DNA of 62,613 nucleotides, filler included, from Bonamia ostreae (lineage: Eukaryota), in NCBI GenBank assembly GCA_040357525.1. It is 34 parts of 34 records of this genome, joined end to end, with 100 filler letters (N's around TTAATTAATTAA, not from the genome) between each part and the next. Parts side by side here need not be neighbours in the genome. Positions count along the whole stretch, not along the records: positions 14,849 to 16,600 come from JBDODL010001366.1; 33 more parts are not named here. One strand, 5' to 3'. A program made the position numbers and the translations under genes. The notes below the pieces were generated by a model. The model did no database searches, was not told the origin of the DNA, and saw only the letters and a list, made by a program, of their open reading frames with translations. Shown here in pieces: positions 45 through 56,928 of the stretch. Each line of letters begins with the position of its first letter. Within the stretch, counting starts at the first letter, position 1.

Positions 45-1156
45 GGATCGCACTGCACAACTCTCAGCTTTAGCCCAAATGATGCTAGATCCATTTTATC
101 GCACATTAAAAGGATTTTTGATTTTAATCACAAAAGAATTTTTATCGTTTGGACATATGTTTGGCGTTAGAAACGGCAATGCGTCAAAGGAAAACGGTTT
201 TTAAACAATTTGTTCAAATTTGAAATGACTAAAAAATCGATTTTAAAAACGATTTTTAAATTTGACTTAAAAATAGCAAACGGAAGATCTCCCATTTTCT
301 TACAATTTCTTGACGCAACTTATCAACTTTGTAACCAGTATCAGTTTTGTTTTGAATTCAATTCGATTTTACTGGAAAAAATCGCAGAGGAGTCGTTTTA
401 TTGCAAATATGGAACTTTTCTTTATAACAACGAAAAAGAACGAAAAGAAAAGAAACTGCGCTATAAAACAGTTTCTCTATGGACGTACATTTTAAGAAAT
501 CCAAAAGATTACACAAATGTTGCATTCACTCCCTTGAAGGATGTAATATTGCCCCCGAAAACATTAAGACATATCGTCGTATGGCCGTTTTACTATAGAC
601 AACACATGTTTTTAAGTTGACTAAAACTGAAAAAATAATATTTTTCGCTTCAAAAATTAAAATAAATGTTCAAAGATAAAATTTTATTTTAAAAAATAAA
701 AATCGTCTCAAAGTTAAAAAAATATTTGCAAAAATAAAAATCGTCTCAAAAAATAATCGTCTCAAAGTTAAAAAAAGATTTGAAAAATCGACTAAAAAAT
801 AACAATTGCAATTTTAACATTACTTTTTAAAATAACAATTATTCAAAAAGTGATAGCGACTACAGAATTCCTTTATCTTTCGTAATGTCCTTAAAATACG
901 AAAGCGATTTTTTGGCTTTAAACAACAAAATCAAAATTTTGGAAAAAGAGGTCGACCTAATCAAATCCAAAAACTCGAATCTAAAAAAGCAAATGAAAGT
1001 TTTAGTTTCTCAATTAAGACGTCGTCAGCTAAACCTAATGAAGAAAATGCGCTGGAAGAAAATTTCAAAGAAATAACACAAATGCTTCATCAGAAGGATA
1101 TACCGAAACAAAATAGAAGCGAAAGCTTTCTTCGCATGAAAAATTTTTTGTTTTAA
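45..1156 (+). CDS. Myotubularin-related phosphoinositide phosphatase, 3' part (spliced)
   Basis: Exon from 45 reads (W)[39 protein letters not shown], then [14 protein letters not shown]....FEFN and [12 protein letters not shown], all typical MTMR motifs. C-terminal coiled coil. GT-AG introns include a probable 20-nt one at 999-1018. Confidence 0.9.
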
Positions 1157-1268
1157 ACAACTCGATTTTTCAGCTTTTGCATATTTAAATTTTCGATCTT
1201 AAAAATTGCAAAAATGGCAAATTTCCCCTCTAAAATAGCAATTTTCGCTTTTTAAAAAAATCTCAAAA

Positions 1269-1761
1269 ATGAAAAGCGAATCGATAAAACACGACTTGAA
1301 GGAAAACTACACCTTCAAATCCTCCAAAGGCACCGAAACAAAAAATCTCGAAGAAACAGATTACAAAAATTTGACCGAAAAGGAAAAAGCGGTTGAGAAC
1401 CATATGATCGGAATGGGTTTTCAAACTGACAATCTAGTCAAAGAAATTACAAACGAACCAGACGCCACCGCGAAGAAAACGTTCGAGTTGACATTGGACC
1501 AAATTAAAAACGGCAAACCAAGTTTGGAAGACGCCAAAGTGCTCGGAAAAGACGATAATTTTTATGACAAAATTGTTTTTTACGACAATATTTTTTACAA
1601 CAAAAGCAAGGTTTGAAGCTCAAGCATACACACACGGAAAAGAGTGTTCACGAGAAAATGAGGGAGGTTCATCGGGTCATTAAGCAAAGCAAGGATTTGA
1701 AGCTTAGACATGTTTTGCCTCCGTTGCACCATCCTCCGAGCATGGTTATTTTTAAAATCGC
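1269..1761 (+). CDS. Putative WH2/thymosin-like actin-binding repeat protein (3' partial)
   Basis: ORFs 1269-1616 and 1613-1761 join through a GTTTTTT...AAAAG intron. Repeated LDQIKNGKPSL, KIQGLKLKHT and VIKQSKDLKLRHV motifs resemble WH2. Confidence 0.45.
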
Positions 1762-1950: not shown

Positions 1951-2995
1951 ATGATCCGGACGAAGTGGCCGAAAATTTTGCCGGCCGATACATGTTGGAC
2001 AGCACAATGAAAAACCAAATCAAAGAACATTTGCAAAAATTTGTCGATTCCGAAGCCGTCGCTCGCAGGAAAAGACGCGAAGAACAAAAGAGCTTTAGAA
2101 TTTACAAAACGATTCCGATTTGGAATAAATGCTCGCTTAACTTGACTTTCAACTGCGACCCGGAAAAAATGTTCCGCCAAATTTTTCTCAATATCGAGAA
2201 AGACAACGAACAAAAAGTTGTCAATTCAAACATTTAAAAGTCCGAAAAAGACAAAATAAAAAAACCGGAAAAATTGGTAAAATTGGTAACCGAAAATTCG
2301 CTGTTCCACGTTTCAGAATTCACAAAAGAACACAGAAAAGAACTTTTAGATTTGCTCAAAATTAAAATTTCTGTTTTTCCTGTTTTCGACGTCGTTCGCG
2401 TTTTGATGTGCCACGACAAATTTGTCTCCGATTTCTGGTCCGATTTTGAGCTAAAAAATAAAGTTTTCGAGAGAATGGCAGATAGCAAAGATTTCTTGGA
2501 AATGGCGATGGCTTCGAAGATTTTGAGCAACTTTATCGCCAAAAAGAGGAAAAGACCGATGTTTTGAAAACCAATTTTGAAAATCAATTTGAAAGACTAA
2601 ACGACGAAGACATCGAAATAGCCAAACAAGTTTTGCGGTTGTTGGACAACTTTTACGCAAAATCGACGACACTCGAAAAAAGCAAACACTGCGGAATGTT
2701 CAGAAAATCGGTTGTCGTCGTCGGATCCAATTTGGCGATATGGACCGGAAGAGACAACTTGAACGGGCTTTTGGACGACTACAAAAAGTTGATGGCCGCT
2801 CTTTTGAGTTTTGCCGAAGAATTGACCGAAGAGAAAGTTCTCAAAATGGCCGTAACGACGATCGCGTCGCTTTTCCTGAAAATAGAAAAAATGGAGAAAA
2901 CAGACAAAAACGGGCTAAATTTGGCTCTGAGACTTGTTCAGAACTATCCGAATTTGAAGAATCTCGAAGAGGACTTGGAGAAGTTGATTGAGTAA
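1951..2995 (+). CDS. Hypothetical helical protein, 3' part (spliced, protist type)
   Basis: ORFs 1965-2237, 2274-2567 and 2564-2995 join in frame through short GTT...AAAG introns. No family recognised. Confidence 0.6.
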
Positions 2996-6355: not shown

Positions 6356-7330
6356 ATGGACCTGCAGTTGAAAATTTTTAATGAAATAAAGTCAAACGGT
6401 TTTGAAATATTAAAGAGACTTAAATCGACGGACCAAAATTCTTTTCTTTATAAAAGTCGATTTTCAAATAAAAACAATTTTAGAATCTTTGCGATTTAAT
6501 CGTTCAAAATTAATTTTAGAATTTAAATTTAACTAATTTGAAGTTGCGACACAAACTTTGCAATCTTTCAATAAATATAATAAATTTAATCAGCCAAAGA
6601 AACTAATACAAGCGAGATATTTATTGCAAGAGTCTATCATAATGTCGAAAGGCACTCTTCAATTGGATATTTATTCACGGAAAATATTTTGACAGAAAGA
6701 GATATTATAAAAACATGTGACAGTCCTTACATAGCTGAATTCAAAACATTTTTTCCAACCAATAACTTTTACTGTTTAGTTACTCGTTATTTTGATAATA
6801 TTGCGATAAAGTTTTTGAATTTGTAATTAAAGCGACTTTTTGAAGAATCACGTAATAAGTTCATCAGCAAAAAGTTTGAAGTTTTTATAAAAAGGAATTT
6901 TGATTGCAGAAATTGTAATGGCAATGAATAACGTACACAGAAACGGATATTTTATTAAAAATTTGTCAATTGAAAATGTTTTGATCCAGCAAAATGGGCA
7001 TATTTTGTTAACTTCCTTCATTTTTTCAGAAAGAAGAAACGATGTTGAAGAGATTCAATCGGGAATTTCATATCAAAACAAATTGGAAATTGGTTTTTTC
7101 GACGTACAAAATTTTTTAAGCAGGATTTATTGGAAAAAGTATTAAAAACTGAATTTTATAATGTTAAAAAAGCGCCAGAAATAATTGAACACAAACATTA
7201 TAACAAATCAGTTGATTATTGGTCGTTAGGAATGTTAATTTACAAAATTTATGAGAAAAAATATCCTTTTAATATTGAAGAAGGACATTCTATAGAAAAG
7301 TTTGGAGAAATAGAATTTTTTAAAATAAAA
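6356..7330 (+). CDS. AGC-like protein kinase, probable pseudokinase (3' partial, spliced)
   Basis: Motifs RDIIKTCDSPYI, IAEIVMAMNNVH, ENVLIQQNGHILLTSF and APEII..YNKSVDYWSLGMLIY..YPF. Microintrons at 6811-6832 (22 nt) and 6874-6894 (21 nt). Confidence 0.8.
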
Positions 7331-11213: not shown

Positions 11214-12690
11214 TGTTTTGGAATTGTAAGGAAAAAGAAACGGTGTCCCAAAAAAGACTTCGTTGTTGTAATTTAAAATCTGCCCAAATTTCAACCTTTA
11301 AGAAAATTTGGCTTTAAAAAACCTGCAATCATTCTCGTTCCTGCAAAAGTCGCCCAAAACGTTATTTGGCGCACTAATTTCTTCAATCTCGTAAATGTTT
11401 AGACATTGCTTTAGTTTTTCCACGTTACATTTTTCCACTTTTCGCCTTAAAAAACTTAAATAATTTTTCTTTGGCTTTTCTTCATAATTATTTTTTTGTC
11501 CACTGTAGTTTTCGCTAAATGATTTTTTCCACGACTCTTTTTTCGAAGTTTCGCTCTTTTTGTCCAAAATTTCCGTTTTCGAAGTTTCGCTGTCGATAAC
11601 TTTTGTTGTTTGCTTTGAAAATGATTTGAGTGTGTCGCCGTTTGCTTTTTTGGAAAAAGTTTCATCGTCCTTTTCTTCAGTTTTATTGTCGTTGTCCTCA
11701 TTTCCGACATTGTCATTTTCTTCAATTTTAATTTCAGAATCGGTATTATCGGGATTTGGATTTTCGGTGTCCTCTTCGTTCAAATTTTGCATCAAAATTT
11801 TTCTGTCATTTCCGTTGTGCAATTTTTCTTCTTCAACGTAAACAACTGTGTTTTTGCTTCCCAACTTTTCCTCGAAACGTTCTTTGGCTAAAGTTTGCGG
11901 CGGATTCAGATTCTTCAAATTGGTAAAATCGTCTTTGATCAGTCGCTCGGAGCCGTCAAAATCCGGTGCGACGAGTTGTTCCAACAACGTTTGTTTGTTT
12001 TCGAAAACAAGCAGTTTCTTGCCGACCGCGTCGAAGAGCGGCTGCTTCGGAGACAAGACCGATTTTAACGTGGAAGAAGTCGAAAAGATGGCGGCAACCA
12101 AAACAGCCGACGTCGAAGAGCTGTTCCCGTTAAATCTGTGTCGCAGAGAAGTGCGTTTGGAGATTTGGTCGAGCAAGTCTGAAACTTTGTTCGACTTTTG
12201 CATTTCGACTTCGAACCGCACGAGCGCGAGCGAGTTCGAAACGAAGTAAATGCTGAAAGTCTGGTTGTTGGGCTGTGGCACGGGGAGCGAGAGGTACATG
12301 AAGGGATCGAATTTCTGCGAGCGGTAGCCACAGCCTTCGCTGCGGCAGATCAGCTCCGATCGCAGTTGACCGTGGAACAAGTCCGCGATGAAAGAATTGT
12401 TCTGGGAAATGTGCCGGTTCCAACTTTCCTTCGCGTCATCGACCGCAGTCGAAAAACGCTTTTTCTCTCGTTTAAGTTCTTCGTGCAACCCGTCCAACAG
12501 AAAGGCCGTGAATTCGTGCGAGTCGTGTTGGTTGCAGCCACTGAGGAAAGTTATTTTGAAAACAAAAATAGGTTTGTTTTTTCGTCTAACGCTCGTTTAA
12601 ACGAAGACGGATTGACCGAGCTGTAGTTGCCCGACCAAATTTTCTTCAGCAATTTGGCGAATTGGGAAGCGATCGTTGAATCTTTTGTAT
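11214..12690 (-). CDS. Ubiquitin-specific protease, USP4/11/15-like (internal part)
   Basis: Motifs NQHDSHEFTAFLLDGLHEEL, NNSFIADLFHGQLRSELIC, FDPFMYLSLPVP and FFGTPFL. 23-nt intron at 12541-12563. Confidence 0.9.
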
Positions 12691-12994: not shown

Positions 12995-13764
12995 GGCGTA
13001 GTTGCAATTCTGTCATTGCCCCGGGTACATTTTTAATTTTGAGAGATTTGATTTTTTTGATTGCACGAAATGGCAATATTTCGATAAATCCTGTTTCAGA
13101 TATTATTTCGTCCAGCAACGAAGGACTTTTAATTATCTTTTTTTTAAGCAAATTAGAAAAATTAAAAATTTGGTAAAATTAAAAATTCTTATTATACCAT
13201 TTTGGCAGTTTCTGGAGAGGAATAATGTACATATCCAAACCCCAAAGATTCTCCATTTCTGTTAGTGACAATTTTCGAGGAAAGAATATCACCAAAGATT
13301 GAAAAAAGTTCGTAAAATCGTCGATTTGATATTTGTTTATTAATTTTCTTTTATTTTGCAATATTTGATATTTTAAAGTTATATTTTAATATTATAAAAT
13401 TTAGCCGTTTGAAACTTTTATAAAAATATTTCCATCTTTGAATTTAAGAGCATGAATATCCTTATTCACCCACATAATCCGACATGGTTTTCCTAAAATA
13501 GGAGTAAAATTTAGACAGTTTTTAGCATTTTTGGCACAAGAAAGGTCTGCAAAATTGACATAAGCGTATCCATATCTCTTTTTATTTTGTTTGTATTTGC
13601 ATAATTTGCATGAAAGCACCATTCCATATTTTGAAAAGATTGAAATTAAGTCGTTTTCCGTGACTTCTGGCAACAAATCGCCTTTTGAATAAAATTTAAA
13701 TTTAATATTTTAAACCGACGTATAAAGAAGAAGAATTTTTATTGAATTTTGTCTTTTTGTTCAT
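12995..13764 (-). CDS. Polyadenylate-binding protein-like multi-RRM protein (5' part)
   Basis: Motifs SSLYVGDLLPEVTE, YGYAYVNF, LNFTPILGKPCRIMW, GNIFIK and FSIFGDILSSKIV..GFGYVHY. Three GT-AG introns. Confidence 0.88.
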
Positions 13765-14999: not shown

Positions 15000-15809
15000 A
15001 TGGCGCACTTTATGCCACCATCCTTGTTAGCTCTATTCGCTCCCAACCCTCCTATAAAACACATCAAAGCGCCTACAAAGAAGAAACCGATTTCTTACAC
15101 TGGCCTCGCCAGCATGCTCCATTTGGTCAAAAAACACGCAAGCGACCCTCTCCCCAAAAAAGGCGCCACAAACGAAGAAAAAAGGGCGCGCCGCCGCAGA
15201 AAACAAAAGAAAATCAACGAAAGAATGATCGAAAAACGGCTCAAAGAATGGGACCCGAAGAACAACAAAGAAATCGCTTCCGATCCGTATCGAACTCTTT
15301 TCGTCGCACGGCTGAGCTACAAAGCCACGAAAGAAGATTTGCTCAAAGAATTCAATTACTTCGGAGCGGTCAAATCGGTTGCGCTCGTCAAAGACAAAAA
15401 AGGGCAGCCGAGAGGATACGCTTTCGTCGAGTTCAAACACAAAGACGATCTCAAAAGTTTTTTTCGCCAAACTTGTCCTTTTGTAAGAGGCGTACAAAAA
15501 GACGGACGGACGCCGAATTAAGGGCCGGCGGATATTGGTCGATGCTGAAAGAGGCAGAACGGTCAAGGGCTGGAAGCCGAGGAGATTAGGTGCGGATTTT
15601 TTATTTTCAAAAATTAAATTTTGTGAAAAGGGGGTGGACTTGGGAGTACCAGAAGATCGAAGAAAAAGCGCGAAAGCGAGAAAAGAAGAAGTCAGAAAAG
15701 CGGTACTGATTCGAGGAGAGAGCGCAGAAGCGGCAGAACGGGCAGAGATCACAGAGATCAGAGAAGGGAACGTTTTATAGATGAGAGAAAAACTAGAAGG
15801 AGACATTAA
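15000..15809 (+). CDS. SNRNP70: U1 snRNP 70 kDa protein
   Basis: Motifs [36 protein letters not shown] and [30 protein letters not shown] after removing introns 15457-15487 (31 nt) and 15590-15630 (41 nt). Confidence 0.97.
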
Positions 15810-16600: not shown

Positions 16601-18605
16601 NNNNNNNNNNNNNNNNNNNNNNNNNNNNNNNNNNNNNNNNNNNNTTAATTAATTAANNNNNNNNNNNNNNNNNNNNNNNNNNNNNNNNNNNNNNNNNNNN
16701 TAATTGTATACACACTTCAAAAAATTGAACATTTACTAAATATACATACGGCAGAATCCACAAAAGGCTGGACAGTTCCGAAATGCCCAACTGATGTAAG
16801 GAGATTTGCATGAGCTTAGCGTATAGTCGGCACAGTCCGGAAGTCTATCCTGGCACACATCACCAACGCAGGACTTGAACAACCCTTGTAAGATACACAA
16901 AGCAATTCTTCATTATCCTAATATTATGTAGTTTTAGACCACGAGATAATTGTAATTTACTGTAAATCATTTGAAACCCCCATATTAATAGGTCATACCT
17001 GCATACACAAGGCTTAAAACCAACTTCAGAGACAGGGGCATTATCATAGCCTGAAGCACCGTAAGGTAGTTCCAAAGACAACAGTATTTATATACTTTTA
17101 TGTGATTATATCGTTAGTGGACATATTAATCTATGATAATCAGGAAAAATAAATCAGTGATTTTGAGTGAGTATGCCTTATTGGGCAAATCTTAACCAAT
17201 AGAAAACGGTGGTTTCTCTCTGGACAGAAAATCCTTTGTTGTAGATAAGGCAGACCGAAATGATTAAATTCGATATAGTGCATCAGGTACATGTAAAGCT
17301 ACGCAAAAGTATCATATATACTTGATATATGTTTTGATATTTTTCTATAGATTCCATATAGAGTACCCGAGTGTTTACTGAGCTGTAGCAATCCAAACTT
17401 TAAAATCAACGTTTGGGATTTACTTTCACTCCACGTTAAATCTGCTTGCATAGCTCGATGATTGTGACGTCACATCAGCTGTTTACAATTAATAATGAAC
17501 GTAAACCTTTCATCGGCAACCACAAATGTAAACGTATGTGAATATCCTGAATTAGTTATATTTCCTGACATTCAATCAATGATCTTTTCGTTATTATGTG
17601 CACTACTTATTTCACGACCTTTGTATTTGCGCGGAAGCGGACATCGAAAGCGTGAGTACTTCACCGCTCAAATAGAAAGGATATGTATATTTCCCGATAT
17701 ATTATGAAAATATTTCTAAACATCTGCATAAAGTTCATGTCAGAAAAGTGCAACAAGAAAAAGATGGTTGACTTAAAATTTTATCCTGATTATACAAGTA
17801 ATGCAGCGATGATGTGGACACAGTTGTAGTATTAGACATCTACATGGGTGATGCCGGGATCACCACCAACACATTTTTAATCAACTTTAAAGCTACACAA
17901 ACAACCATGAAGTCCAAAGTTCATGATCAGATTTCATGATGATGGGTCTGACTCCAAGGTCCAAAATTCACTGTTTAGCTTCAAAATTGAGAATGCATTG
18001 ACCCTGGGAACTGCAGATGGCAAGGGTCACATGAAGAAAATGATTTATAGTTATGTGATAGCACAAGAAATGCACCGAAATGTTCTTCGATAAAGGCCTC
18101 TAATTCAAAATGAACTGCATACGATGATATTTAGAATGCTATCTACAGTCTACACACATAAGGTGTACTGTAACGTTGTTGATGGTTCCGAGAATTAATA
18201 AATTCAAAGCTTTACACTATAAGCACTACCAAGACCTTTTTACAGGTTTTTGTCCAACTTTGTAAATAGGTTACAGAATCCTGAAGGATTAAGCAATTGA
18301 ACTGTGTTTGCAGCACTCACACTAGCATCATCTGAAAATCAATACAATGTCATGTACTGTACCAGTGGTTTACTGAGTGATAAGACAGAGGAGGTACTCT
18401 CTCAAATTCACGAAGGACACCTGGAAGTAACAAGGAGATTTTGTCAGTGGGCNNNNNNNNNNNNNNNNNNNNNNNNNNNNNNNNNNNNNNNNNNNNTTAA
18501 TTAATTAANNNNNNNNNNNNNNNNNNNNNNNNNNNNNNNNNNNNNNNNNNNNCAAAGTAGCATGCTTTTCTTCTTTCAAAATCGTGAACAAGTCCCTTTA
18601 AACGT

Positions 18606-26249: not shown

Positions 26250-27395
26250 TTACACTCTCTTTTTCAACATGGCCACATTTTCAACCGGCGGCGGCGGCGG
26301 AATTTGCTCGAACGCTTTCACGGGCATTTTGACTGTCGGGCGAAGCTCAATCCCATTGCTCGCAAAAAACGAAATAAAATATTTTGCGTCATAATTCGAC
26401 AAAGTCGTTTTCGGCGGTGATATTGATGGCGGCGGCGGCACATCCGAAGAATGTGCTTCCAAATGACTCTTCAGATCTTCTAAAGACGCGTTCGAATGCC
26501 CACAAATAAAACAGATGCACCGGTGCTGATCCGAGAAATGCTTTTGCATGTGGTCGACCCACAAAACTTTGTTTGTAAAACTTCTTTCGCACTGCTCGCA
26601 CGGATAAACTATTTTTTCGACCGAGTTGAGCGAATTTTCTATTTTAAACGCCATTTCCGAAATAACCTTCGGAAAACTTGTGTACTTCGGGTCAAAATGG
26701 CTTTTGGCTCTGTGGACCGCCAAATTTGCGCTCGACCTTTTTTCGCAAGAGACATTACATTAAAACCTAAAATAGACGTCGCAGACGTCACAGCGGTAAT
26801 TGCTTCCGCTCAAATGCCCTTTTTGGTGATTCCTCAAATTCCGTCTGCTGACAAAGCCGCGCTCGCAAATGTCGCACAAGAACGGGCTGCGCTTGGAATG
26901 GACGACGCGATGTCCGCTGAGCGACTTTTTGGAGCGGAATATTTTCCCGCACGTCTCGCAGCGGCAGATCGGTTTCTCATGGAGGGGGATGTGTACTTGC
27001 ATGTGTTCTCGGAGAGTGGTGGAGCGCGCGAACCGCGAGTCGCATTTGTGGCATTTGTAGCGCTTGTTTCCGGTGTGCGTGTGCAGATGGCTGACCAGAT
27101 TCCACTGGAGCGCAAAGCTCCGCTGACAGAGATGACATTGGAAAGGCTTTTCGCCGGTGTGAGTGGGCTCGTGTGCTCGGAAAGAGCTTCTGTGCTGAAA
27201 CGCTCTTCCGCAGACTTTGCAGACGAAGAGGTTTTTGGGCGACGTTGTTTTCTTCGATACGATAAGCGCGGAAGAGTTGCCAGAAAGAGGTGGATGGCCA
27301 ATCGGGAAGAAATGTGCTGTTTTCCGCGGTTGTGAGAGGTTGTTGGTTTGTTTTTGGAGTGGTATCAATTGTTGTGGTATCAACTCGATCGTCTA
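26250..27395 (-). CDS. Multi-C2H2 zinc-finger protein (5' end uncertain)
   Basis: Repeated C-x2-C...H-x3-H with a TGEKPF linker. 30-nt intron at 26737-26766. Confidence 0.92.
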
Positions 27396-27994: not shown

Positions 27995-28910
27995 TTATTC
28001 TTCTTTTTTTGCGATTTTCAAATCCAATTCGTCCGCAATTTGATCAATATTCTGTTCGACTCTGTCCAATCTTGTTTGATAACTTTTTAACGCCTTTTGA
28101 TATTAAATTTTTGATAAAAAAATTTGGTCATTTTTAATTTTTCATTTTCAAAAATTTGATTTTGGAGATAATTAGAAACGTTGAACATTATCTCAAAATC
28201 GGTTTCATCAAATTCTTCAGATTCGTCCAAACTCTTTTGTTGGACCAGATCCTTTTTTTCAGCCATTTCCAAGTTTTCATTTAATTTATCCAATCTCTCT
28301 ATTAATCCGACGCTTTGAAGCTTTAAATTGTTCGTTCTGTTAAACAAGTTTTTCAGATCTTCTTCCGGATCAAAACCATTCAAATTCACTTTCGAATAAA
28401 GTCGTTCCTTTTGGGCAATGGCTCTAATAAGCCGGGGAGATAAGTCCGAAAAGCTGCTAATGAGTTCTTTTAATGGCGAGTCGACACTAAAAAGTTGGTT
28501 TTGTTCAAAAGCGTTAATTTCCGATTGCATTTTTAGAGCCTTTTCGGCGAAGATCTTTTTGAACGTGTTTTGCAAAGCGACGCGTTCTTTGAGAGAAGCG
28601 AAGCTGTCGATGTGAATCGCGGTTAGTCTTTTGTAGTAAAATTTTGTTTTTAGAAATTTTGTTTTTAGTCTTTAAACCTTGTGTCGTCAGGATTGGTGGA
28701 AACTCCTTCTTGCCATTTAATGACATCGGCATTCGGGGGACATAAGAATTCTTGTCCGTCCGGCGTCGGTTTGTTGTCGTACAAAACCGCCTGGAAAAGG
28801 TTGTTCGGGCTCGTCGGGTTTATCCTTCTGAAAAGATGTTTCAGCGCTGTCATAATCCCAGATAACTGGTTTTGCTCTTTGCTATACATATTATTGATTT
28901 CAGCCATCAT
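27995..28910 (-). CDS. NUP54: Nucleoporin Nup54/Nup57-like
   Basis: After splicing it reads AVLYD..PPNADVIKWQEGVSTNPDDTRLTAIHIDSFASLKERVALQ, followed by coiled coils. Confidence 0.75.
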
Positions 28911-29775: not shown

Positions 29776-31192
29776 ACATCATCTTTGAGCAAATGCAATT
29801 TGTTCTGAGCGGATTTGAACGCGTTTTCAGATTTTTCTAAAAATCTCAAAATGAAAACCCAATTTGGCTACGAGAACTTTAGATTGCTTTAAACAGATAT
29901 CAAGATCATTTTTGATATCTTCATCGCTTTTATCCAAAATTTCAATTATGCTCAATTCAAGAATTTTCTTTTCTTTGAGCAAAGCAGAAATTCGAAAATT
30001 CAATCTTTCTATTTCGTTTTGAGTTTCTTTGACCGATTCAACATTTTCTTCTAATCGCCTAAAATTTTTATAAAAATTAAAACTCCAAATTATTTTCTTC
30101 AACATTGATGTCCTTTGAGAGCTTTGAAGACGTTTCATTGAGAATAACAATTTCTTTCGTCAAGTTTTCCAAATCGTTTTTGTACTTTATTTTTTAACAA
30201 AAAACTTTTTTGTAACTTTGAAGATTGTTTTTGGCCAATAAAAGGTCTTTTTCTAGAAAGGCCGTTTTTGTTTTTAAATTCTTGCGCACTGTTTTTATTT
30301 TTTGTAGCGCTTTTGTATATTTGGTCGAAGAGAAAATGTCGTCGAATTTTAATTTTAATGATTTGGAATCGCCCATTGGCCACAACGATTCCTTTAAATA
30401 AAATTTGAAAATTTTACAAAATTAATAAACTTCTTGATGGCAAAAGATGACATTGCTTAAAATAGCTTTAGATACTTTCATAATTCGAGCTGCGATGTTA
30501 TCTATCTCCAAACATTTGTGAGTTGCGGTGACCCTTTCTCCTTCTTCGTTTATGCTTCTAATCGTCGCGTCGATTTGTTGATATCTTCTCGTTTTTGCTT
30601 TTTGCGAAACTTGAAAAGATCGGATTATTGTAACAGGTTTTCCTTTTCGAGAAATAAATTAGCAAAAAATAAGAAATCAACAAATATTTGCAAAACTTTT
30701 TACAAAACATTTAAATTTGCAACAAAACGTTAAAAATCAACAAATATTTACAAAAACTTGTACAAAACATTTAAATTTACTAAACATTTAAAACATTAAA
30801 AATCACTTAAAAACAAAAACCATCAAAAGTTTTCAATGTTAGTTTAATTTGGGCTCTTACAAGACATTCTTTTGATAACTTTTTACGTTTATGTAAATAA
30901 CTAATGGATCGTGTACGAAAGATTTCCCTTTTAGAGAATCTGGAGGATTTATCCCGGTACATGCGAAACGGAGAGCTTCAATGATCGTCTAAATTTTATT
31001 TTTATTATCAATTTTAAAAATTCGGTCAAAATATTATTTTTTTGTCAAATTTTACGAATAAAATAAAACAGTTTTTCCAGACCCGTTATTACCGGTAAAA
31101 AGTGTTAATGGGCGTTGAAATTCTATTGTAACCGGTGTGTTCGGGTCGTACGACCTTATTCCTGAAATCGAAAGTTTTTTTATTGTCGTCAT
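29776..31192 (-). CDS. RAD50: DNA repair protein RAD50, N-terminal part (at least 6 introns)
   Basis: Motifs [64 protein letters not shown] and [14 protein letters not shown]. Introns include 21 nt (30185-30205), 23 nt (30879-30901) and 25 nt (30059-30083). Confidence 0.96.
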
Positions 31193-34205: not shown

Positions 34206-34975
34206 ATGGTGTTCTGTAGACCAAGTTTCACAAAAGAGCAAAAAGAACAGATGCTCGTCTCGAAACATATTGACCTGAAAGCGGCCGCTGAATATAGACA
34301 AATAGACAACTCGGTCAAAGTTTTGTTGCTCGGGCCCGGCGAATCTGGGAAGTCGACGATTTTGAAGCAGATTCACTCGATTTTTAATAACGGATTTGAC
34401 GACGATGAGCGGAGAGGGTTTGTGCCTATCGTAAGGGAGAACCTTTTTACTGCGATCAAAGTTTGCGAATTTGACGATTTTAAAAAATTTTGTGATTTTA
34501 ATCGATAATTAATTGGTCTCAAAAATATTTAGACTTTACTTGAGATGACTGATGTCTTGGCAGAACGAGGTTTAAAGGGCACAAAAATAAGCAAAAAAAG
34601 TGAAGCGATAAAAAACGAAATTTTGAATTTTTGCAGTGTTGAAGAAGTGACGGATTGGAAAAAAGTTAATTTTGGCGTGAAATGACAATTTTACAATTAT
34701 TTATCAAATTTCTAAAAACGACTTAATTATAAAAGTTTTGTAATAAAACATCAAAATTGTGGACAGAAGAGAAAGGGCTAAAAGTTGTGTATGAGAATCG
34801 CTCGATGTACCATTTGACAGGATCTGGTGATTACTTTATAAGAAAAGCGGTATCGATAGGTAGTTCAGAATACGTGCCAACAATTTTGGATGTAATGAGT
34901 GCGAGAATTAAGACTACTGGAATATCAGAAAAATTTTTCAAAATTGGTTCGAATGGTTTCCGTGTTTTTGATGTC
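34206..34975 (+). CDS. Heterotrimeric G-protein alpha subunit (5' part)
   Basis: Motifs KVLLLGPGESGKSTILKQ, YVPTILDVMSARIKTTGI and FRVFDV. Two GTT...AG introns. Confidence 0.95.
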
Positions 34976-35387: not shown

Positions 35388-36872
35388 AAAATATCCCGAT
35401 CGGCTTCGTGGACGCTGGAATCAATATGCCACGTAAGCAAACAGAAGATGTCGGGGCGGTTAGAGTTCTTATGCAAAATTTTCGCTCATTACTCAAACCT
35501 ATCGCACAAAGAAGATCAACGCCATTTCATCAATGTTTTTAAGTGATCTCGCCGTTTCATTTATAAAGGGCATTTGCTACGTTTTTTCGTACATCGAAGA
35601 AGAGAAGAATTTGCGTGGCGCGATTCGCTCTGTAATGAGCACTTGCTTGAATATAATGCGCAAAATGCCGGCCACCGAGGACGCCGTGGTGACAGGGATA
35701 GACGGGATCGCTCATATCGTCCAATGCTTCGATATACGACACAAACCTCTCAGTTTTATATTTTTTGAGACCACCGAATAACGGTAACAACAATAGAGCC
35801 GATTCTGAATTCCGTTGTCAGCGACATTTTGAACGACATTTGGAGCGGTTTCCTCGGAAACTTTATACTAAATCATCACGTTTTTGTTGTAACGACATTT
35901 CCAGAAAAACGACAGAATAATGGAGAGCTGCATTTCCAAATTGTGCAAGTACTTTGTAAGAAACTTTCCCGTCTGTTTCAGGGCTTCCGTCGACCGCATT
36001 TTGATCGCTTTCAAAATGGTCATGGACAAAACTTTTATTCCCTCGTTTTTAGAGTTGCGCAAAATTTTGTATTTAACAATTAAATCGCGCCAAAGCAGCA
36101 ACAATGACTTGTACATTGTAACTTGAAACAATTTAAAGAAGCTTCATTTACCTTTCGTCGATTTTCGTGGAAAAGTATGAAGACGACGAGGAACTAATCG
36201 TCAAAATATTGAACATGTTCTCCGAGTACTTTTTCGACACCGCTTCGAAAAGTTTTTAGAGCGAAGTCAAGATTTGTTCAAAAAGGATTCGTCGGCTTAT
36301 TTTTATTTGTTGGAAGACTATTTTCGAATGTGCTTCAAGTTCCTCAAAAATTCGGCCGTTGTTTTGTACCGTTCGAAGCACTTCGAAAACAGTTTTTTTC
36401 GTAAAAGCAGTTTTCGTGACCGCGATGGACGAATTGTCGATTGCGGATTATGAATCGTTTGAACTCGTCTGTGAGTTCATAAAAAGAGTTCTGATAGAAG
36501 CAAAGTCTTATGAGAAGAATAGCAGTCGAATGGAAGGGGCCGTGGCGATGAAGATTCTGCAGAAGCACTCTGCCCAACTGGTAAGCAAAGTTCTGATGTG
36601 CGTTTATTCGCAGCCGAAAAATTTCATTCCCGATTTGGCAGAAATTCTGACGGTCATTGAAAGTATGGACAAAGCAGGTACCAAAGAAGTTATGAGATTG
36701 ACCGTCAATTCCAAGTTTTAAAAGCAACATGAGAAGACTGGGGAAGATTAGAAGTGAAATAAGAGAAAATTTTTTGAACGATTTTTCGAGTGCCTTTTCG
36801 ATCGAAGACAAAACTGACGTTTTGATTACTTTTCATGGAATGTGTCAATTGCATTATATTAAAAACAATTGA
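35388..36872 (+). CDS. TNPO3: Transportin-3/Mtr10-like importin-beta family protein, C-terminal part
   Basis: Spliced translation SFIYLSSIFVEKY...LEDYFRMCFKFLKNSAVVLYRS..IFVTAM...VCEFIK tracks TNPO3 as recalled. Introns of 34, 25, 28, 20, 19 and 19/22 nt, plus one of 17/44 nt. Confidence 0.75.
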
Positions 36873-37298: not shown

Positions 37299-38421
37299 TT
37301 ATTTTTGAATAATCAATCCATTCAGAAAATCAAATCGGTTACCATCCGGCATCAAAGTACTAAATTCCCCCAAATCGTCAACAACTTTCAAATAGCCAAA
37401 TTCGTCGATCCCTTTAATCACAAAATCTCGATTTCGAACATTTACTTTTTGATCGCTGTGCATCCAAAACTGATAATATTTTTTCAAAAAATAGCCGCAA
37501 AAGCCATTTTCTTCAAATTTTTCAAAATTTGAAGAAAAAATTGTTAAAAAATCAAATAAAATGTCTTCCGCCAAATGTTTTGGTAATTTTGCACTTGTTG
37601 ATATTTCCGATAAACATGTTGTTGGCGACTTGTTATATACATTTAACCCAATTCCTATAGTAATTTAATGTTCATATTCAATAATTTCCAAAAATGAATT
37701 TGATGTACATATTCAAAATTAGAAAAAAAACCGCAAACATATTCGTTATGTTTTCCAGGAACTCTGTTACAAAGAACTCCCCCGATTTTAATTTTTTTGT
37801 CAAAATAAATATCGTTTGGCCATTTTATATAAATATTCTTTTTTTGTAAAATTTTAAAACTTTAAAATTGTCCGTTTTTTTAATTGCGTTAAGCAACATT
37901 AATGTCACAAAGTATTGAAGGAAATGAATATTATTTTTGTTTATAATTATTTTGAAAGAAAACATCAAACAACCTTCGGGGGATTCCCAAACATTATTTT
38001 TACGCCCTTTTTTTAAAATTTACAAAACGGAGAAAAATTGTAAAATTTACAAAATTTTTTTAAAATTTTTTTAAAGGAGATAAATTATTTAGTCAAACCA
38101 ACTCCGTTTATTTGTTTATGAGCAATAAAAACGCTGCCATCCGGCAACCAGCTCAATTGACTAAATTTTACAGAAAATTAAAAACTTTGCCAATAAAGTT
38201 TGCGTTGAAGTTATTAAATCCGAATGCAAAAAATGGCGGAAAAGTTTATTTTTCGAAAATTTTGTAAAAAAATAGTCAAAATCAAAATTTCGTTTTTGGA
38301 TGATTTGCAGAAAATCGGCCATTTTGAAAAAAGGATTTATTTTAATATTTTCAAATTTTAATTTGTTCTCTTTTATATTTTTGCATTCACCAGAAAACAG
38401 TGCATTTATTTCAAACGACAT
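37299..38421 (-). CDS. Biotin--protein ligase (holocarboxylase synthetase)
   Basis: Motifs TSTQTLL, QINGVGRKNNVWESPEGCLMFSF, IKWPNDIY, KIGGVL, GIGLNV and LMPDGNRFDFLNGLI. Introns at 37838-37860 (23 nt) and 38161-38185 (25 nt). Confidence 0.95.
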
Positions 38422-44827: not shown

Positions 44828-45069
44828 TCTTCGAACTTAGACAGATATTTGTCAATTTTATTAACGCAAATTAGCATATTCAAGTTTAGCAAAATTGAAT
44901 TGCAAGAAATGTTGGCACTTATTGCTCATTTGCCAATATTTAAATTTGATTAGACATTTTAAATGATCAAAAAGCGAAATTAAAAAAGCAAAATTAAAAA
45001 GCGCCTTTTTGTCGTTGATGATCGACGGCAAAAAGTAAAAATAAGATTTGTTTAAAAATTTAAACAAGA

Positions 45070-46115
45070 TCAATTATTTACTGAAAACTCATCATCGAGT
45101 TGTTTCAAAGTTCTAAAAATGTCTTTAAGAGGACAATCGGATTTAAGCGCCACATCTTTTTGACTGTTTTTGTCCAAATCTTCAAAAATGTTTAGCAAAT
45201 TTCCGTCCAAAAAATTTTCCATCTGAACTTTTTCGTTGGTTCGATCAAAAAACTCTCTATATCGCATGTGCCTAGTTTTGACAAAAATTGCAAAAATCAA
45301 AAATTTGTCGGTTACAGACATTCAAGAACCGAAGTTTATAGAAGCAACCTCAGTCAAATTAGGAGTTCAGATAAACCTACTCTCCGTCTTGACATCAGTT
45401 TGGAAACGACAGCTTCGAGATTCGAACCCATGCGCGCACGAATGCGTACACTTTGTCCGAACCACTGAGCCATCGCGCCAAAAAATTTTAAAATTCGAAA
45501 AATGGAATAATCGAACAAAAAAACTTGAGCAAACTGTGAAAATTGGAATAATTGTTGCTTAAGACGTTCTGTAGTTTTTTTATTTTCGAAAGGTCGTCAG
45601 AGTCGACTTTAAAGACCACCCCAAATTCTCCTTCCGCGGTGCCGAAAAAGATGATTCTTTTTCTGTTGTGGTCTTCTATCGGGTTAAAGTCTGCGGAAGT
45701 TCGGTCCATTATTGTTATTTTTGATCCCAAATGAAATCTTCCTTTGGTCTATTTTTGGAATTAAAAATGTGAAGCGAAAACAGCGAGATCCGGCAAAAGT
45801 CTTTTGGAGGAATCGACGTCTCGTTTTATGTACCTCAAATTTCCGTGGCGATCGGCAGTGACAAAATTGTCTTTGTCCAAAAATTCCGTGTCGGTGACAA
45901 AGCTCATTCGGCAATCGCTCGCCAGTTTATGCAACGTTTCTGTGTCGTGGCCCAATAAAGTGATTGATCTCATGATGTCCTAAAATGTGTTATTGTTCCA
46001 GTTAATTTTATTGTCGAATTTAAGTTTGAGATAAAGAATAAATTACCCCGGAAATGATGAGATTGTTTAAATTTTTGACTTTTAAAGTCAAAACATGGCA
46101 GTTAAATTTTGTGAC
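45070..46115 (-). CDS. DDB1: DDB1-like (CPSF_A family) C-terminal part
   Basis: Motifs IISGDIMRSITLL, FLDKDNFVTAD, GRFHLGS, FFGTAEGEFGVV, HMRYREF and NFLDGNLL. Introns include 45272-45524 (253 nt). SF3B3 or CPSF1 are not fully excluded. Confidence 0.7.
45315..45479 (-). ncRNA. tRNA(Ser/Leu)-derived Pol III element (SINE-like), copy 1, intronic
   Basis: Starts GGCGCGA. A box TGGCTCAGTGG (45462-45472), B box GGTTCGAATC (45419-45428), no intact anticodon arm, a body of about 90 nt, then T-runs. Confidence 0.7.
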
Positions 46116-50601: not shown

Positions 50602-51579
50602 ATGCAAAAATTTGCAAATTTTTCAAATTTCCGATATCGCTTAATATTCGCAATACTTTCAGGCAAAAAAATAGCATTTGCACTGAACAAAAATTCACGC
50701 CTAAATTTGCACCAAAACACTTTTCTCGATTTGTGCAAAAAAATTTGTAACGACTTTTATACAGACATCGATAAAAATTATCTTGTGATCAACCCCGGTA
50801 CCATCGTCAATGGCACCGATATCGAATTTGATTGCGGCTATGAAAAACCAATTGGATATTTCATTGAAGGAATTCTGGTTTTAGCTTTGTTCGGCAAAAA
50901 CGATCTGAAAATAACTTTTGCTGGAAAAACGAGTTCTTTCGGAAATATTTCGGTCGATTTTGCGAAAAATCTGGTGGAGACACTGAAACATTTCGGTGCC
51001 AATAATTGTGTGCTCGAAATTAAGAAAAGAGGTTCGTGCAAAGAAATGCCCGCCGAAATCAGTTTAATAGTTTCTGTGGTCAAATCTTTGAAACAGGTCA
51101 ATTTGGTCGATTCTGGCCATGTTGAGAAAATAAGAGGAATTGCTTTTTGTGAAATGGTGCCTCCCGCGATTGCCAATAGAATGTCAATTACGGCCAAAAA
51201 GATTTTGAAGGATTTTTTGCCCGACGTTTGGATTTTTACAGAAGCGTTTAATCGGAAAATTTTGATGTTTTAAAAATGGAAAATATTTTGAAAATGAAAG
51301 AAATAAAGAAGATAAAAATTTTGGGATATGTTTGACAGCCGAGTCCTCGACAGGGAGTCTGTTAAGCGGCGAAGAATGTTTGCACGACAGTTTATCGCCG
51401 GAAGAGGTGGCTGAAAGGGCAACCAAATTTGTGTTAAAAGAGATTTCTCATGTTTGAAGCAAATTAACAAAAAAGGGAGGGTTTTTTGACGAGAAAACTC
51501 AGCCTTTCGTCATTTTGTTAATGGTTTTGTGTAGAGAGGACGTAAGTAATGTCAAATTTGGGAAATTATCTAATAAAGC
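50602..51579 (+). CDS. RCL1: RNA 3'-terminal phosphate cyclase-like protein (3' partial)
   Basis: Motifs NFRYRLIFAILSGKKI, PIGYFIEGILVLALFGK, EKIRGIAF, FLPDVWIFT, SPEEVA and GGFFDEKTQ. 24-nt intron at 51452-51475. Confidence 0.92.
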
Positions 51580-55506: not shown

Positions 55507-56928
55507 AACAAACACGGACAGAAAACACATTTCAACTATTGTAAAAGTAGTCAAAAACGTCAAAATCAGTAGAGATTCCACAAAATGGCACACCGAATTT
55601 TCAGTAGAAAAGTCAAAACTGCTCCAAGAATATGAGACCGGTTGCACTCTTTGCGTGGCTCCGAGAAACGATTTTTGGTTGGTCGACAAAATCTGCAGAA
55701 GATTTGGTTGGAACAAAAATCTTGTTTTTTCGATCAAGTCGAATGGCGGTCTTTTGGATTCCCGTTTTTGCACTAAAATTCTCAACCTTTTTAACGAAAA
55801 ATCTGAAAAATTTTTAAAATCTGTAAAATTTAGCCAAAATTTAACAAAAGATTTGAAAGCTTTCGAAAACCCGATGACGATAAAACGTGCTCTTTTGTGG
55901 TATTTTGATTTGACCCATTTCCCAAAAATGTCGCTGATAAAATCTTTGTCAAATTTTGTCGAAGACAAAGCCGAAAAGTCAATTATCGAAAAATTGGCCA
56001 AATTGGACAAAAACGTTTTTTTGCAAAATTTAGAATGAAAAATCGCGCGAAAACTTGGTCAAAGACTTTTCAGTTTTGGGATTATTTAACCAATTCAAAT
56101 CGCTGAAACTGAAATTCGAGGATTTTATATCAATTTTCCCGCGACTGCTGCCACGCGAGTACACTGTTTCTAGCGCTTATAACGTTTCTAGACCAATCTT
56201 AAAATTATTTAGCCAGAGAAAAAAATCGTTTCGGTTACATATTCTCTTGTCGGAGAAGATGAGCCGTTCGGGGTCTGCACGAAATATCTCAAAAACTTGA
56301 GAGCGGAAAAAGACAGCGCCGCCGTTTTTTTGAAACAGTCGTCTTTGAGGCTCCCCCGAAAATTGGATGGCGCCGCTATAATAATGGTTGGCGCTGGATC
56401 GGGATTAGCTCCTTTCAAAGGATTTGTCGAGGTTTTGTTTGATCAGTTTAGCACGGCGCGGCAGAGAAAGAAAGAGCAGGAATCGGAGATTGGTGTTTGT
56501 TTTTCGGGTGCAAAAGCAAGAAGAACGATTTTATTTATGAGAGCGAATTGTTAACGGCAGAAAAATCTGGTTTTTTTCTGGCAGTTACAAAATAAGGCGT
56601 TTTGAAGCATTTGTTTGTGGCGTTTTCTAGAGACCAAATAAATAAAATTTATGTGCAAGATAGAATTAGAGAGAATTCGGGGATCGTTTGGAAGTTGCTG
56701 TGTAAAAGACGATCATTTATTTTTATTTGCGGGTTCCTGATTTTAAATTTTCGAATTTTTTTAATTTAAAAAATCGATAATTCAATAGATCGACAGGAAT
56801 GGGATTAAGCGTAAAAACTGAAATAAAAAGAATAGTTTTAGACAACTTGAAAAGTAGAAAAAAGGCAGATCAATTCATGGAAAAATTGAGAGACGAGAAA
56901 AGAATTGTAAGTGAACTTTGGGGATAAT
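55507..56928 (+). CDS. Diflavin (NADPH-cytochrome P450 reductase-like) oxidoreductase, FAD/NADPH domains
   Basis: Motifs PRLLPREYTVSSA, GVCTKYL, IIMVGAGSGLAPFKGF, LFFGCK, VAFSRDQ..KIYVQD, FICGS and C-terminal ELWG*. Introns at 56015-56033 (19 nt) and 56432-56451 (20 nt), among others. Confidence 0.93.

Follow-up and report, generated by a model that had tools for sequence, protein, structure and literature searches.

A predicted GUUU(U) 5′ splice-site consensus alongside a retained U1-70K gene in contigs of the oyster parasite Bonamia ostreae

The gene at positions 15,000–15,809 raises the question of how 5′ splice sites are recognized in an organism that retains U1-70K and whose donors, according to an earlier note on this DNA, read GTTT(T) rather than GTRAGT. 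The gene lies in a window of 62,613 nt (filler included; assembly GCA_040357525.1) that consists of 34 short contigs, falling into two compositional groups and representing two organisms. Seventeen of the contigs form a CpG-rich group and are of protist origin, with the sole named public protein record, P0028 on contig 31, being that of Bonamia ostreae, a haplosporidian oyster parasite. In the accessible text of a published account, B. ostreae is said only to carry canonical introns, at about two per mRNA (PMC11069148), and no paper stating a donor motif for Bonamia or haplosporidians was found in a search of the accessible literature. The donors GTAAAT, GTATGT, GTACGT, and GTAAGT had been proposed for the host contigs, and this held for the one exon that was checked: it lies on contig 10, encodes a ShK domain, and has GTATGT after it.

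The interval 15,000–15,809 coincides exactly with one gene, which begins with ATG at the first position and ends with TAA at the last (Table 1). The Pfam scores of its product are 67.6 bits for U1snRNP70_N (cut-off 23) and 58.9 bits for RRM_1 (cut-off 20.7), and, with both introns removed, the protein aligns end to end with 10 homologues, without gaps at either junction. Both RNP motifs are conserved, and the order of the U1snRNP70_N motif, RRM, and charged tail identifies the protein as U1-70K (SNRNP70), the nearest outside homologue being 46–47% identical. The gene was thus correctly described as well conserved and as carrying a GTTTTTTT intron, for which the alternative feasible donor within five codons is GTAAGA; the second intron, which had gone unnoticed, interrupts a conserved stretch downstream of the RRM. 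Since U1-70K has been kept, the U1 snRNP is probably still in use.

In the CpG-rich contigs, 46 introns were inferred by a search limited to GT-AG pairs, with 19 pinned by protein homology and 27 by reading-frame continuity alone. A GT...AG pair resolves every one of the 19 homology-anchored junctions at the position that homology demands. Listing every frame-rescuing GT..AG pair gave 1783 candidates, too ambiguous for use, and gene chaining with a 9-bit intron penalty lost genuine small exons; in the motif-blind chaining, the score penalizes TTT codons. In several genes the same domain profile continues from exon to exon, as for Pkinase in the kinase gene (profile positions 18–82, 104–152, and 154–207 over consecutive exons), AAA_23 in the Rad50/SMC-like gene (1–36 and then 34–62 on the two sides of the P-loop intron), the G-alpha profile (4–71 before and 112/113–190 after the middle exon), and FAD_binding_1 (10–137, then 148–189 in a 50-aa exon at 56,034–56,183). 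By hand, the acceptor of the second G-alpha intron was shifted to retain a conserved Trp-containing stretch, and a donor at 56,700 (GTGTAA) in the FAD-binding reductase gene was dropped on comparison with P0028 in favor of 56,733. A PDB search with the CPSF_A exon returned no match, and a homologue search with the importin-like gene on contig 20 found none.

Table 1. Exons and predicted introns in the CpG-rich contigs (positions along the window).
Feature	Position	Strand	Length (nt)	Donor	Evidence or remark
U1-70K exon 1 (U1snRNP70_N motif and most of RRM)	15000..15456	+			Pfam, homologue alignment
U1-70K intron 1, phase 1	15457..15487	+	31	GTTTTTTT...GTAAG	removal restores conserved RRM without gaps
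U1-70K exon 2	15488..15589	+			homologue alignment
U1-70K intron 2, phase 1, non-GTTT	15590..15630	+	41	GTGCGG...GAAAAG	sole feasible GT-AG pair
U1-70K exon 3 (tail rich in Arg, Ser, and Asp; TAA stop)	15631..15809	+			homologue alignment
Myotubularin-like intron	197..276	+	80	GTTTTT	anchored; Pfam Myotub-related 244–292 then 297/299–352 in flanking exons
Protein kinase intron	6811..6832	+	22	GTTTTT	anchored; three-frame reading, unique feasible donor
Protein kinase intron	6874..6894	+	21	GTTTGA	anchored; three-frame reading, Pkinase profile
Rad50/SMC-like intron, splits P-loop region	30989..31069	-	81	GTTTTA	anchored; AAA_23, unique donor
Rad50-like intron	30879..30901	-	23	GTTATT	anchored; homology reading
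Rad50-like intron	30643..30820	-	178	GTTTTT	anchored; also in predicted protein P0029
Rad50-like intron	30392..30430	-	39	GTTTAT	motif-blind chaining, P0029 exon map, unique donor
Intron	30185..30205	-	21	GTTTTT	motif-blind chaining, P0029 exon map
Intron	30059..30083	-	25	GTTTTA	motif-blind chaining, P0029 exon map
Intron	29837..29858	-	22	GTTTTC	frame continuity only
G-alpha intron	34461..34532	+	72	GTTTGC	anchored; G-alpha profile, chaining
G-alpha intron	34677..34735	+	59	GTGAAA (alternative GTTAAT)	chaining
Biotin-protein-ligase-like intron	37655..37731	-	77	GTTTTT	homology-anchored
Biotin-protein-ligase-like intron	37838..37860	-	23	GTTTTA	anchored; BPL_LplA_LipB profile 38–83 then 95–126
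Biotin-protein-ligase-like intron	38007..38098	-	92	GTTTGA	homology-anchored
Biotin-protein-ligase-like intron	38161..38185	-	25	GTTTTT	frame continuity only
CPSF_A-domain intron	45749..45781	-	33	GTTTTC	anchored; CPSF_A 147–207 then 219–283, unique donor
RNA 3′-phosphate cyclase-like intron	51267..51300	+	34	GTTTTA	anchored; RTC_insert 2–47 then 59–94, unique donor
FAD-binding reductase intron	56015..56033	+	19	GTTTTT	anchored; FAD_binding_1 profile, unique donor
FAD-binding reductase intron	56184..56212	+	29	GTTTCT	anchored; chaining, FAD_binding_1 profile
FAD-binding reductase intron	56432..56451	+	20	GTTTTG	anchored; chaining, also in public model P0028
FAD-binding reductase intron	56570..56596	+	27	GTTTTT	anchored; chaining, also in P0028
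FAD-binding reductase intron	56733..56788	+	56	GTTCCT	anchored; taken from P0028
Importin-like intron 1	35465..35511	+		GTTCTT	frame continuity
Importin-like intron 2	35753..35769	+		GTTTTA	frame continuity
Importin-like intron 3	35880..35904	+		GTTTTT	frame continuity
Importin-like intron 4	36111..36138	+		GTACAT	frame continuity
Importin-like intron 5	36252..36271	+		GTTTTT	frame continuity
Importin-like intron 6	36392..36407	+		GTTTTT	frame continuity
Importin-like intron 7	36715..36733	+		GTTTTA	frame continuity
Intron	999..1116	+		GTTTTA	frame continuity, low confidence; ambiguous boundaries, 6 feasible pairs
Intron	1150..1238	+		GTTTTA	frame continuity, low confidence
Intron	1611..1624	+		GTTTGA	frame continuity, low confidence
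Intron	2220..2240	+		GTCAAT (or GTTGTC at 2217)	frame continuity
Intron	2561..2595	+		GTTTTG	frame continuity
Ubiquitin hydrolase intron	12592..12608	-	17	GTCTTC	frame continuity, low confidence
C2H2 zinc-finger intron	26737..26766	-	30	GTTTTA	frame continuity
Nup54-like intron	28628..28677	-		GTTTAA	frame continuity
Nup54-like intron	28060..28091	-		GTTAAA	frame continuity
CPSF_A/WD40 contig, downstream intron 1	45465..45534	-		GTTTGC	frame continuity
CPSF_A/WD40 contig, downstream intron 2	45272..45376	-		GTTTAT	frame continuity
CPSF_A/WD40 contig, downstream intron 3	45005..45081	-		GTAAAT	frame continuity
CPSF_A/WD40 contig, downstream intron 4	44836..44865	-		GTTAAT	frame continuity
Intron	51433..51459	+	27	GTTAAA	frame continuity; 3 feasible donors

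[quoted passage not shown] The lengths are not confined to a window of 1–4 nt, which sets the introns apart from the fixed-length ultra-short class of mikrocytid, heterotrich, or nucleomorph type. Each of the three phases is represented among the introns, which interrupt conserved coding sequence and have a base content of 76% A+T and 41% T. Minor (U12-type) introns have the donor RTATCCTT, which occurs in none of the 46 in a tally of donor hexamers.

GTTT begins 34 of the 46 predicted introns (74%), as compared with 23% of all same-strand GTNN (binomial p = 6e-13), and 16 of the 19 in the homology-anchored subset (p = 4e-8); GTT begins 40 of the 46. Relative to the 40.7% T of intron interiors, T is in excess at +3 (40/46, p = 1e-10), +4 (35/46, p = 1e-6), and +5 (28/46, p = 0.005), but not significantly at +6 (22/46), so that the share of U declines from 87 through 76 and 61 to 48% and lies at background beyond. 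A purine occupies +3 in only 4 introns (A in 2), C occupies +3 in 2, and G occupies +5 in 6. GTTT prevails in short and long introns alike (23/30 at 40 nt or less, 11/16 above), and the motif is loose, with the top hexamer GTTTTT accounting for 12 of the 46 and non-GTTT donors, among them the GTGCGG of U1-70K, for another 12. All seven donors listed in the earlier note (999, 6811, 15457, 30205, 36252, 36392, and 56015) are GTTT sites, that at 30205 lying on the minus strand, and the general claim of GTTT(T) donors held; the accompanying remark that they often follow an exonic A fared less well, since A stands at −1 in only 18 of the 46 by raw count.

Several controls bear on whether this excess reflects the method. 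Under motif-blind chaining, GTTT was found at 25 of 35 sense introns but at only 2 of 21 antisense ones (Fisher p = 6e-6), a contrast that weakens with uniform codon scoring to 30/65 versus 20/75 (46% versus 27%, p = 0.02). Where a junction has a single frame-feasible donor, that donor is GTTT in 22 of 28 cases. In addition, two independent database gene models have seven introns in common with the predicted set, six of them GTTT. Thus, the predicted donor consensus of the CpG-rich contigs is GUUU(U), not GURAGU. In 10,734 nt of exons, GTTTT occurs 33 times, whereas codon shuffles predict 16.8 occurrences; the motif is in excess in exons rather than avoided there, and it cannot suffice as a signal.

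On the acceptor side, the base at −3 is A in 25 introns, T in 15, G in 4, and C in 2, and the final four bases are AAAG in 19 of the 46. Acceptors are mostly AAG or UAG preceded by an A-rich stretch (A makes up 41.5% of the 3′ half of short introns), rather than YAG preceded by a pyrimidine tract. As for a branch-point adenosine, there is a weak excess of A at −3, −4, and −8 and no fixed motif. Pairing between the 5′ U-run and the 3′ A-run within introns was considered but found no support, the mean folding energy of 27 introns of 16–40 nt being −0.80 kcal/mol as compared with −0.71 kcal/mol for shuffled sequences.

Pairing with the canonical U1 5′ end had been expected to be poor, and it is: the 46 donors match its ideal partner, GUAAGU, at a mean of 2.80 of 6 positions, as compared with 4.24 for the partner of an Entamoeba-type guide and 4.72 for that of an A-run. 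Because roughly half of the six positions would stay unpaired with the canonical end, the most likely account, by analogy with what is reported for Entamoeba and at a probability just short of even, would be that the 5′ end of U1 snRNA became A-rich (...AAAC type) in step with the donor. A short helix running from GU into such an A-rich guide would leave a share of U that falls with distance from GU. U6 could remain canonical under this account, since its ACAGA box pairs with U at +4 and +6 and wobbles with U at +3; the unchanged box matches the donors at a mean of 3.28 of 5 positions and GUAAGU at 3. Introns would then be chosen by the donor motif together with a near (A/U)AG and a U/A-rich intron composition, the donor alone being insufficient. 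In the window itself, Rfam searches at gathering scores and at E ≤ 10 found no snRNA gene (no match at the former, 10 chance-level matches at the latter), and a tRNA scan found no tRNA.

Alternatively, U1 and U6 may both be canonical, with the weakly paired GUUU(U) selected through intron definition over 16–35 nt, through U/A-rich composition, and through proteins that read U-runs, for example U1C or TIA-1/Nam8-type RRM proteins recruiting U1; this is a serious possibility, if clearly below an even one. It would suit a motif that is degenerate and low in information (relative entropy of 0.70, 0.45, and 0.17 bits at +3, +4, and +5), the A+T- and T-rich introns, the slightly better fit of unaltered U6 ACAGA to GUUUNU, and the frequency of GTTTT in exons, which means that context must decide. 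It would also follow the majority of lineages with atypical donors: in the accessible part of the relevant survey, Saccharomycotina, Giardia, Trichomonas, Micromonas, and Thecamonas are listed with canonical U1, and compensated U1 is deemed rare, being named for Entamoeba, Mastigamoeba, and, with doubts, Physarum (bioRxiv 10.1101/2022.06.08.495308). That compensation is, in that survey, the exception argues against a co-evolved U1, as does the looseness of the motif, with a top hexamer of 12/46 as compared with the 88–90% reported there for Entamoeba. However, three consecutive mismatches to canonical U1, at +3 to +5, would be more extreme than the single mismatch of the GUAUGU donors so described, the T excess is position-bound and declines from +3 to +6 rather than extending throughout the intron, and no TIA-1/Nam8-like protein could be assigned within the window. 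An RRM protein on contig 23 was considered as TIA-1/Nam8, an assignment left unsupported by its merely generic matches to Sxl/ELAV/PABP. The RRM on contig 8 is that of PABP RRM1.

It is unlikely, though not negligibly so, that the donor is picked without U1 pairing, directly by U6, U5, and Prp8, in a step toward the reduced spliceosome of mikrocytids, with U1-70K a remnant or retained for a different role. U1-independent recognition may occur in this clade, by analogy with the related mikrocytids, for which the accessible text reports introns of 16–17 nt, only U2, U4, and U6 snRNAs, and 17–19 spliceosomal proteins (PMC10245619), and pairing with U6 ACAGA would be improved by exactly U at +3 and +4. 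The U1-binding RRM and N-terminal motif of U1-70K are nevertheless well conserved, which favors a working U1 snRNP, and a motif driven by U6 should be enriched in G at +5 and U at +6, both of which are at background, and could be expected to use C at +3, a better partner than U for the G of U6 but present in only two introns. It is very improbable that frame-based intron inference in an AT-rich genome full of T-runs created the GTTT excess: the TTT penalty of the chaining score, the reduced contrast under uniform scoring, and the small sample (about 30 kb) would allow it, but the homology-anchored introns, the single-donor junctions, the identically scored antisense control, and the agreement with two database models all speak against it.

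The reading of a co-evolved U1 leads to a wider and still tentative proposal, held at somewhat less than an even chance: in Bonamia, and perhaps in haplosporidians generally, the U1 guide would have been rewritten to an A-run (...AAAAC) matching a GUUUU donor, independently of the Archamoebae and as the second such case after theirs, and the lineage would be an intermediate toward the mikrocytid state of 16–17 nt introns and a U1-less spliceosome. How splice-site consensus and snRNAs change jointly is an open question, and GUUU donors, a kept U1-70K, and relatives apparently without U1 would together form a three-step series within one clade (paramyxids/haplosporidians, then mikrocytids), in which existing public data would allow the order of events to be tested. 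In practical terms, tiny GUUU introns mislead gene callers: the public model on contig 31 omits the 50-aa exon carrying part of the FAD-binding domain, and the database model on contig 17 lacks the Rad50 P-loop exons. A species-specific splice model would improve the proteome of this oyster pathogen.

Like canonical U2-type introns (GURAGU...Y-tract...YAG), those predicted here have GT/AG termini and cut conserved coding sequence in three phases, but they lack the +3 purine, the +5 G, and the pyrimidine tract, and mostly have A, seldom C, at −3. With the GUAUGU lineages (Saccharomycotina, Giardia, and Trichomonas), as far as these are described in the accessible literature, they share a lineage-wide departure from GURAGU, although GUAUGU departs from U1 complementarity at +4 only. 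Myxobolid myxozoans and Dicyema, which in the accessible account have ultra-short introns of median 22–27 nt and a 5′ signal reduced to "GTa" (PMC13644364), are likewise parasitic and share the reduced 3′ signal (AG only) and weak A's before AG; Bonamia differs in having mostly T, seldom A, at +3. The intron lengths had at first suggested a dicyemid or myxozoan source for these contigs, a reading abandoned in view of the species named in the P0028 record. With the mikrocytids Mikrocytos mackini and Paramikrocytos canceri, which belong with Bonamia to the parasite class Ascetosporea (PMC11069148, in part), the introns share a position at the lower length limit. Unlike mikrocytid introns, however, whose length is reported to be always 16 or 17 nt and whose sequence is reported to vary little (PMC10245619), those of Bonamia are variable in length and loose in sequence, and U1-70K is present. 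Closest in kind is Entamoeba, which according to excerpts has GUUUGU(U) donors and a co-evolved U1 5′ end, AACAAAC (Roy and Bowser, bioRxiv 10.1101/2022.06.08.495308): in both, U replaces purines at +3 and +4, the genome is that of an AT-rich parasite with short introns and retained U1 snRNP proteins, and an unaltered U6 ACAGA could pair better with the donor. Entamoeba is, by the same excerpts, intron-poor and strict, with one hexamer predominating and +5G/+6U near-fixed, whereas in Bonamia +5 is mostly U or A, +6 is U in about half of the introns, and many introns are of 16–35 nt. If the U1 guide has indeed been rewritten in Bonamia, the change would therefore sit, unlike that of Entamoeba, amid many loosely defined 16–35 nt introns with AAG acceptors.

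The contigs of the window (62,613 bases; 34 contigs of 1,730–1,761 nt each, ordered by length and not forming one locus) split cleanly by composition, with observed/expected ratios of 1.37–1.91 for CpG and 0.37–0.64 for TpA in 17 of them (contigs 1, 2, 4, 6, 7, 8, 9, 15, 16, 17, 19, 20, 21, 23, 25, 28, and 31), mostly 0.56–0.98 and 0.65–0.92 in the remainder, and mixed values in contigs 24 and 34. A contig 31 exon used as a query retrieved an identical public protein, P0028, named 'hypothetical protein MHBO_003007, partial [Bonamia ostreae]' at NCBI. Thus, the CpG-rich group belongs to the haplosporidian oyster parasite, with the CpG-poor group presumably being its host or another organism, and the earlier note's division into protist and host contigs is right. 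The 17 parasite contigs have a G+C content of 25–44% with TpA depletion and a strong, unusually large CpG excess.

On roughly 30 kb of parasite DNA, 46 introns were inferred from genomic sequence alone, 34 of them beginning with GTTT and 40 with GTT, most often as GTTTTT (12) or GTTTTA (9). Against a background of 40.7% T in intron interiors, T was found at +3 in 40/46 donors (p = 1e-10), at +4 in 35/46 (p = 1e-6), at +5 in 28/46 (p = 0.005), and, without significance, at +6 in 22/46; the T enrichment over background composition on which the earlier note had staked its claim therefore holds in this sample from +3 to +5. A purine at +3 and G at +5 are rare (4/46 and 6/46), and the last exon base is A in 18/46 and G in 13/46, without the canonical G preference. 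The introns are 14–178 nt long (median 30; ≤35 nt in 29/46), with GTTT in 23/30 of those ≤40 nt and in 11/16 longer ones. The 3′ splice site, on which the earlier note was silent, is as atypical as the donor, being mostly AAG: position −3 is A in 25, T in 15, G in 4, and C in 2 introns, 19/46 end in AAAG, no pyrimidine tract was found in the 46-intron set, and the 3′ half of short introns is 41.5% A. To the eye, a T-rich unit of ~30 nt carrying GTTTTGTAAA-like cores, repeated in tandem in degenerate form, appears to make up most of the 178-nt intron in the Rad50-like gene, and such repetition may be a route to longer introns.

The gene for U1-70K was correctly described as present and well conserved, with a GTTTTTTT intron: the Pfam scores each exceed their cut-offs (U1snRNP70_N, 67.6 bits; RRM_1, 58.9 bits), and the best outside homologues are 46–47% identical. 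Removal of the two introns interrupting its coding sequence yields 245 residues, which align with 10 homologues gap-free at either junction and retain the N-terminal motif, both RNP motifs, and the charged tail. Its second donor, previously overlooked, is non-GTTT. Compared with the sequence that would pair ideally with the canonical U1 5′ end, the 46 donors agree on average at 2.80 of 6 positions, versus 4.24 for an Entamoeba-type guide (AACAAAC) and 4.72 for an A-run guide (...AAAAC); an unchanged U6 ACAGA would match them at 3.28 of 5 positions, with GUAAGU scoring 3. A putative A-rich U1 5′ end that co-evolved in the parasite is tentatively favored, because U1-70K is conserved, the donors mismatch canonical U1 at three consecutive positions, and U declines stepwise from +3 to +6.

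The main rival, and a possible one, is that canonical U1 would pair weakly while intron definition and U-binding proteins pick the site. The donor motif holds only ~1.3 bits beyond GT, and exonic GTTTT is not avoided (33 in 10,734 nt vs 16.8 expected from codon shuffles); therefore, the motif alone is insufficient to define introns, and a nearby (A/U)AG and U/A-rich intron composition must share in the task. GTTT (72 vs 49.8) and AAAAC (66 vs 50.3) are likewise in excess in the same exon sample, homopolymer runs across codon boundaries appearing to be favored in parasite exons. A hairpin of the 5′ U-run with the 3′ A-run found no support (−0.80 vs −0.71 kcal/mol in shuffles). Choice of the 5′ splice site independently of U1 is unlikely. 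Searches of the window at Rfam gathering scores or E ≤ 10 revealed no snRNA genes.

That the GTTT excess is an artefact of intron inference is highly improbable: when open reading frames were chained motif-blind across GT...AG gaps of 14–120 nt, scored by codon usage alone (trained on 17 Pfam-supported ORFs), GTTT was chosen in 25/35 donors on coding strands, as assigned for each contig from Pfam hits, versus 2/21 spurious 'introns' on the opposite strands (Fisher p = 6e-6), the coding-strand background being 239/1,023 GTNN (23%). When all sense codons were scored equally, which gives noisy chains extending through intergenic DNA, the contrast was weaker but still present (30/65 sense vs 20/75 antisense; p = 0.02). 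P0028 and P0029, a database protein on contig 17, agree with the inferred introns at the shared sites tabulated, and P0028 supplied one more donor. Reading in three frames, together with where adjoining exons fall on the Pfam profiles, fixed further introns in the myotubularin, kinase, Rad50-like, G-alpha, biotin-ligase-like, CPSF_A, and RNA-cyclase-like genes. GTTT begins 16/19 homology-anchored introns and, in an earlier 42-junction version of the set, 22 of the 28/42 junctions with only one possible donor within five codons.

Coordinates of features along the window
Feature	Position (strand)	Length	Remarks
Spacer (example)	14749-14848
Extra 10-N gaps	21260-21269; 47568-47577
U1-70K gene	15000-15809
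U1-70K intron 1	15457-15487	31 nt	starts GTTTTTTT, ends GTAAG
U1-70K intron 2	15590-15630	41 nt	starts GTGCGG, ends GAAAAG
Introns of the 46-intron set (examples)	56015-56033; 37838-37860
Donors shared by P0028 and chained set	56015; 56432; 56570
Donor taken from P0028	56733		GTTCCT
Donors shared by P0029 and inferred set	30430; 30205; 30083
Rad50-like gene intron	30643-30820 (-)	178 nt	shared by P0029 and inferred set
Single intron in P0028	56015-56212 (+)	198 nt
Exon inside it	56034-56183	50 aa
P0029 wrong-frame start and missed exons	30821-31261 (-)
RRM protein, PABP type	13404-13709 (-)
RRM protein, generic	42045-42440 (+)
Contig 24 open frame	42543-44279 (-)	579 aa
Contig 15 hairpin	27434-27491
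Contig 10 ShK exon	~16739-16909 (-)		GTATGT near 16749

Exons get lost in annotation through such tiny introns. The exon inside P0028's single intron matches FAD_binding_1 (profile 148–189, E = 1e-5), and the stretch therefore holds one intron of 19 nt and another of 29 nt. P0029 begins in an incorrect frame and lacks two exons, the N-terminal P-loop exon of the Rad50-like gene and the one after it; introns of 81 and 23 nt separate them. One RRM protein can be assigned clearly to poly(A)-binding protein RRM1 (E = 5e-33 against yeast Pab1); the matches of the other are of generic Sxl/ELAV/PABP type only and do not support a TIA-1/Nam8-like identity.

Of the donors GTAAAT, GTATGT, GTACGT, and GTAAGT earlier attributed to host contigs, GTATGT was seen at the one exon checked, a Pfam ShK-domain exon of CpG-poor contig 10 bounded by ...ACAAG and GTATGT, which is consistent with an animal (host) gene spliced at sites of canonical type. 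GTTTTT accounts for 5.8% of GT-hexamers on parasite contigs versus 1.5% on the others. The open frame of contig 24 (CpG 1.47, TpA 0.79) runs off both contig ends, and its only Pfam matches are of coiled-coil type (tropomyosin, filament), none reaching its cut-off. Directly upstream of the contig 15 zinc-finger gene, a palindromic hairpin scores 28.6 and 26.2 bits on the two strands against the mir-5366 model (E = 0.07 and 0.33), far under the gathering score of 73, and is probably a mere inverted repeat. Spacers between contigs are made up of TTAATTAATTAA flanked on each side by 44 N.

According to Roy and Bowser (bioRxiv 10.1101/2022.06.08.495308), all five Entamoeba species combine GUUUGU(U) donors with a U1 5′ end of AACAAAC, and Mastigamoeba has a different compensated U1; a canonical U1 is said to be retained alongside atypical donors in yeasts, Giardia, Trichomonas, Micromonas, and Thecamonas. 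Mikrocytids, related ascetosporeans, are described in the accessible text as having introns of 16–17 nt, with U2, U4, and U6 the only snRNAs found (PMC10245619). In its 11 passages on introns and splicing, a B. ostreae genome paper mentions canonical introns, about two per mRNA, and nothing more on them (PMC11069148), and literature searches, supplements aside, turned up no paper that describes GUUU donors or AAG acceptors in Bonamia or haplosporidians. The finding would gain interest should the U1 guide prove rewritten. The parasite's GTTT donors differ from the 'GTa' donors that a recent survey, in the text available, gives for ultra-short animal introns (PMC13644364). Overall, the parasite presents a lineage-specific transformed splice-site consensus.
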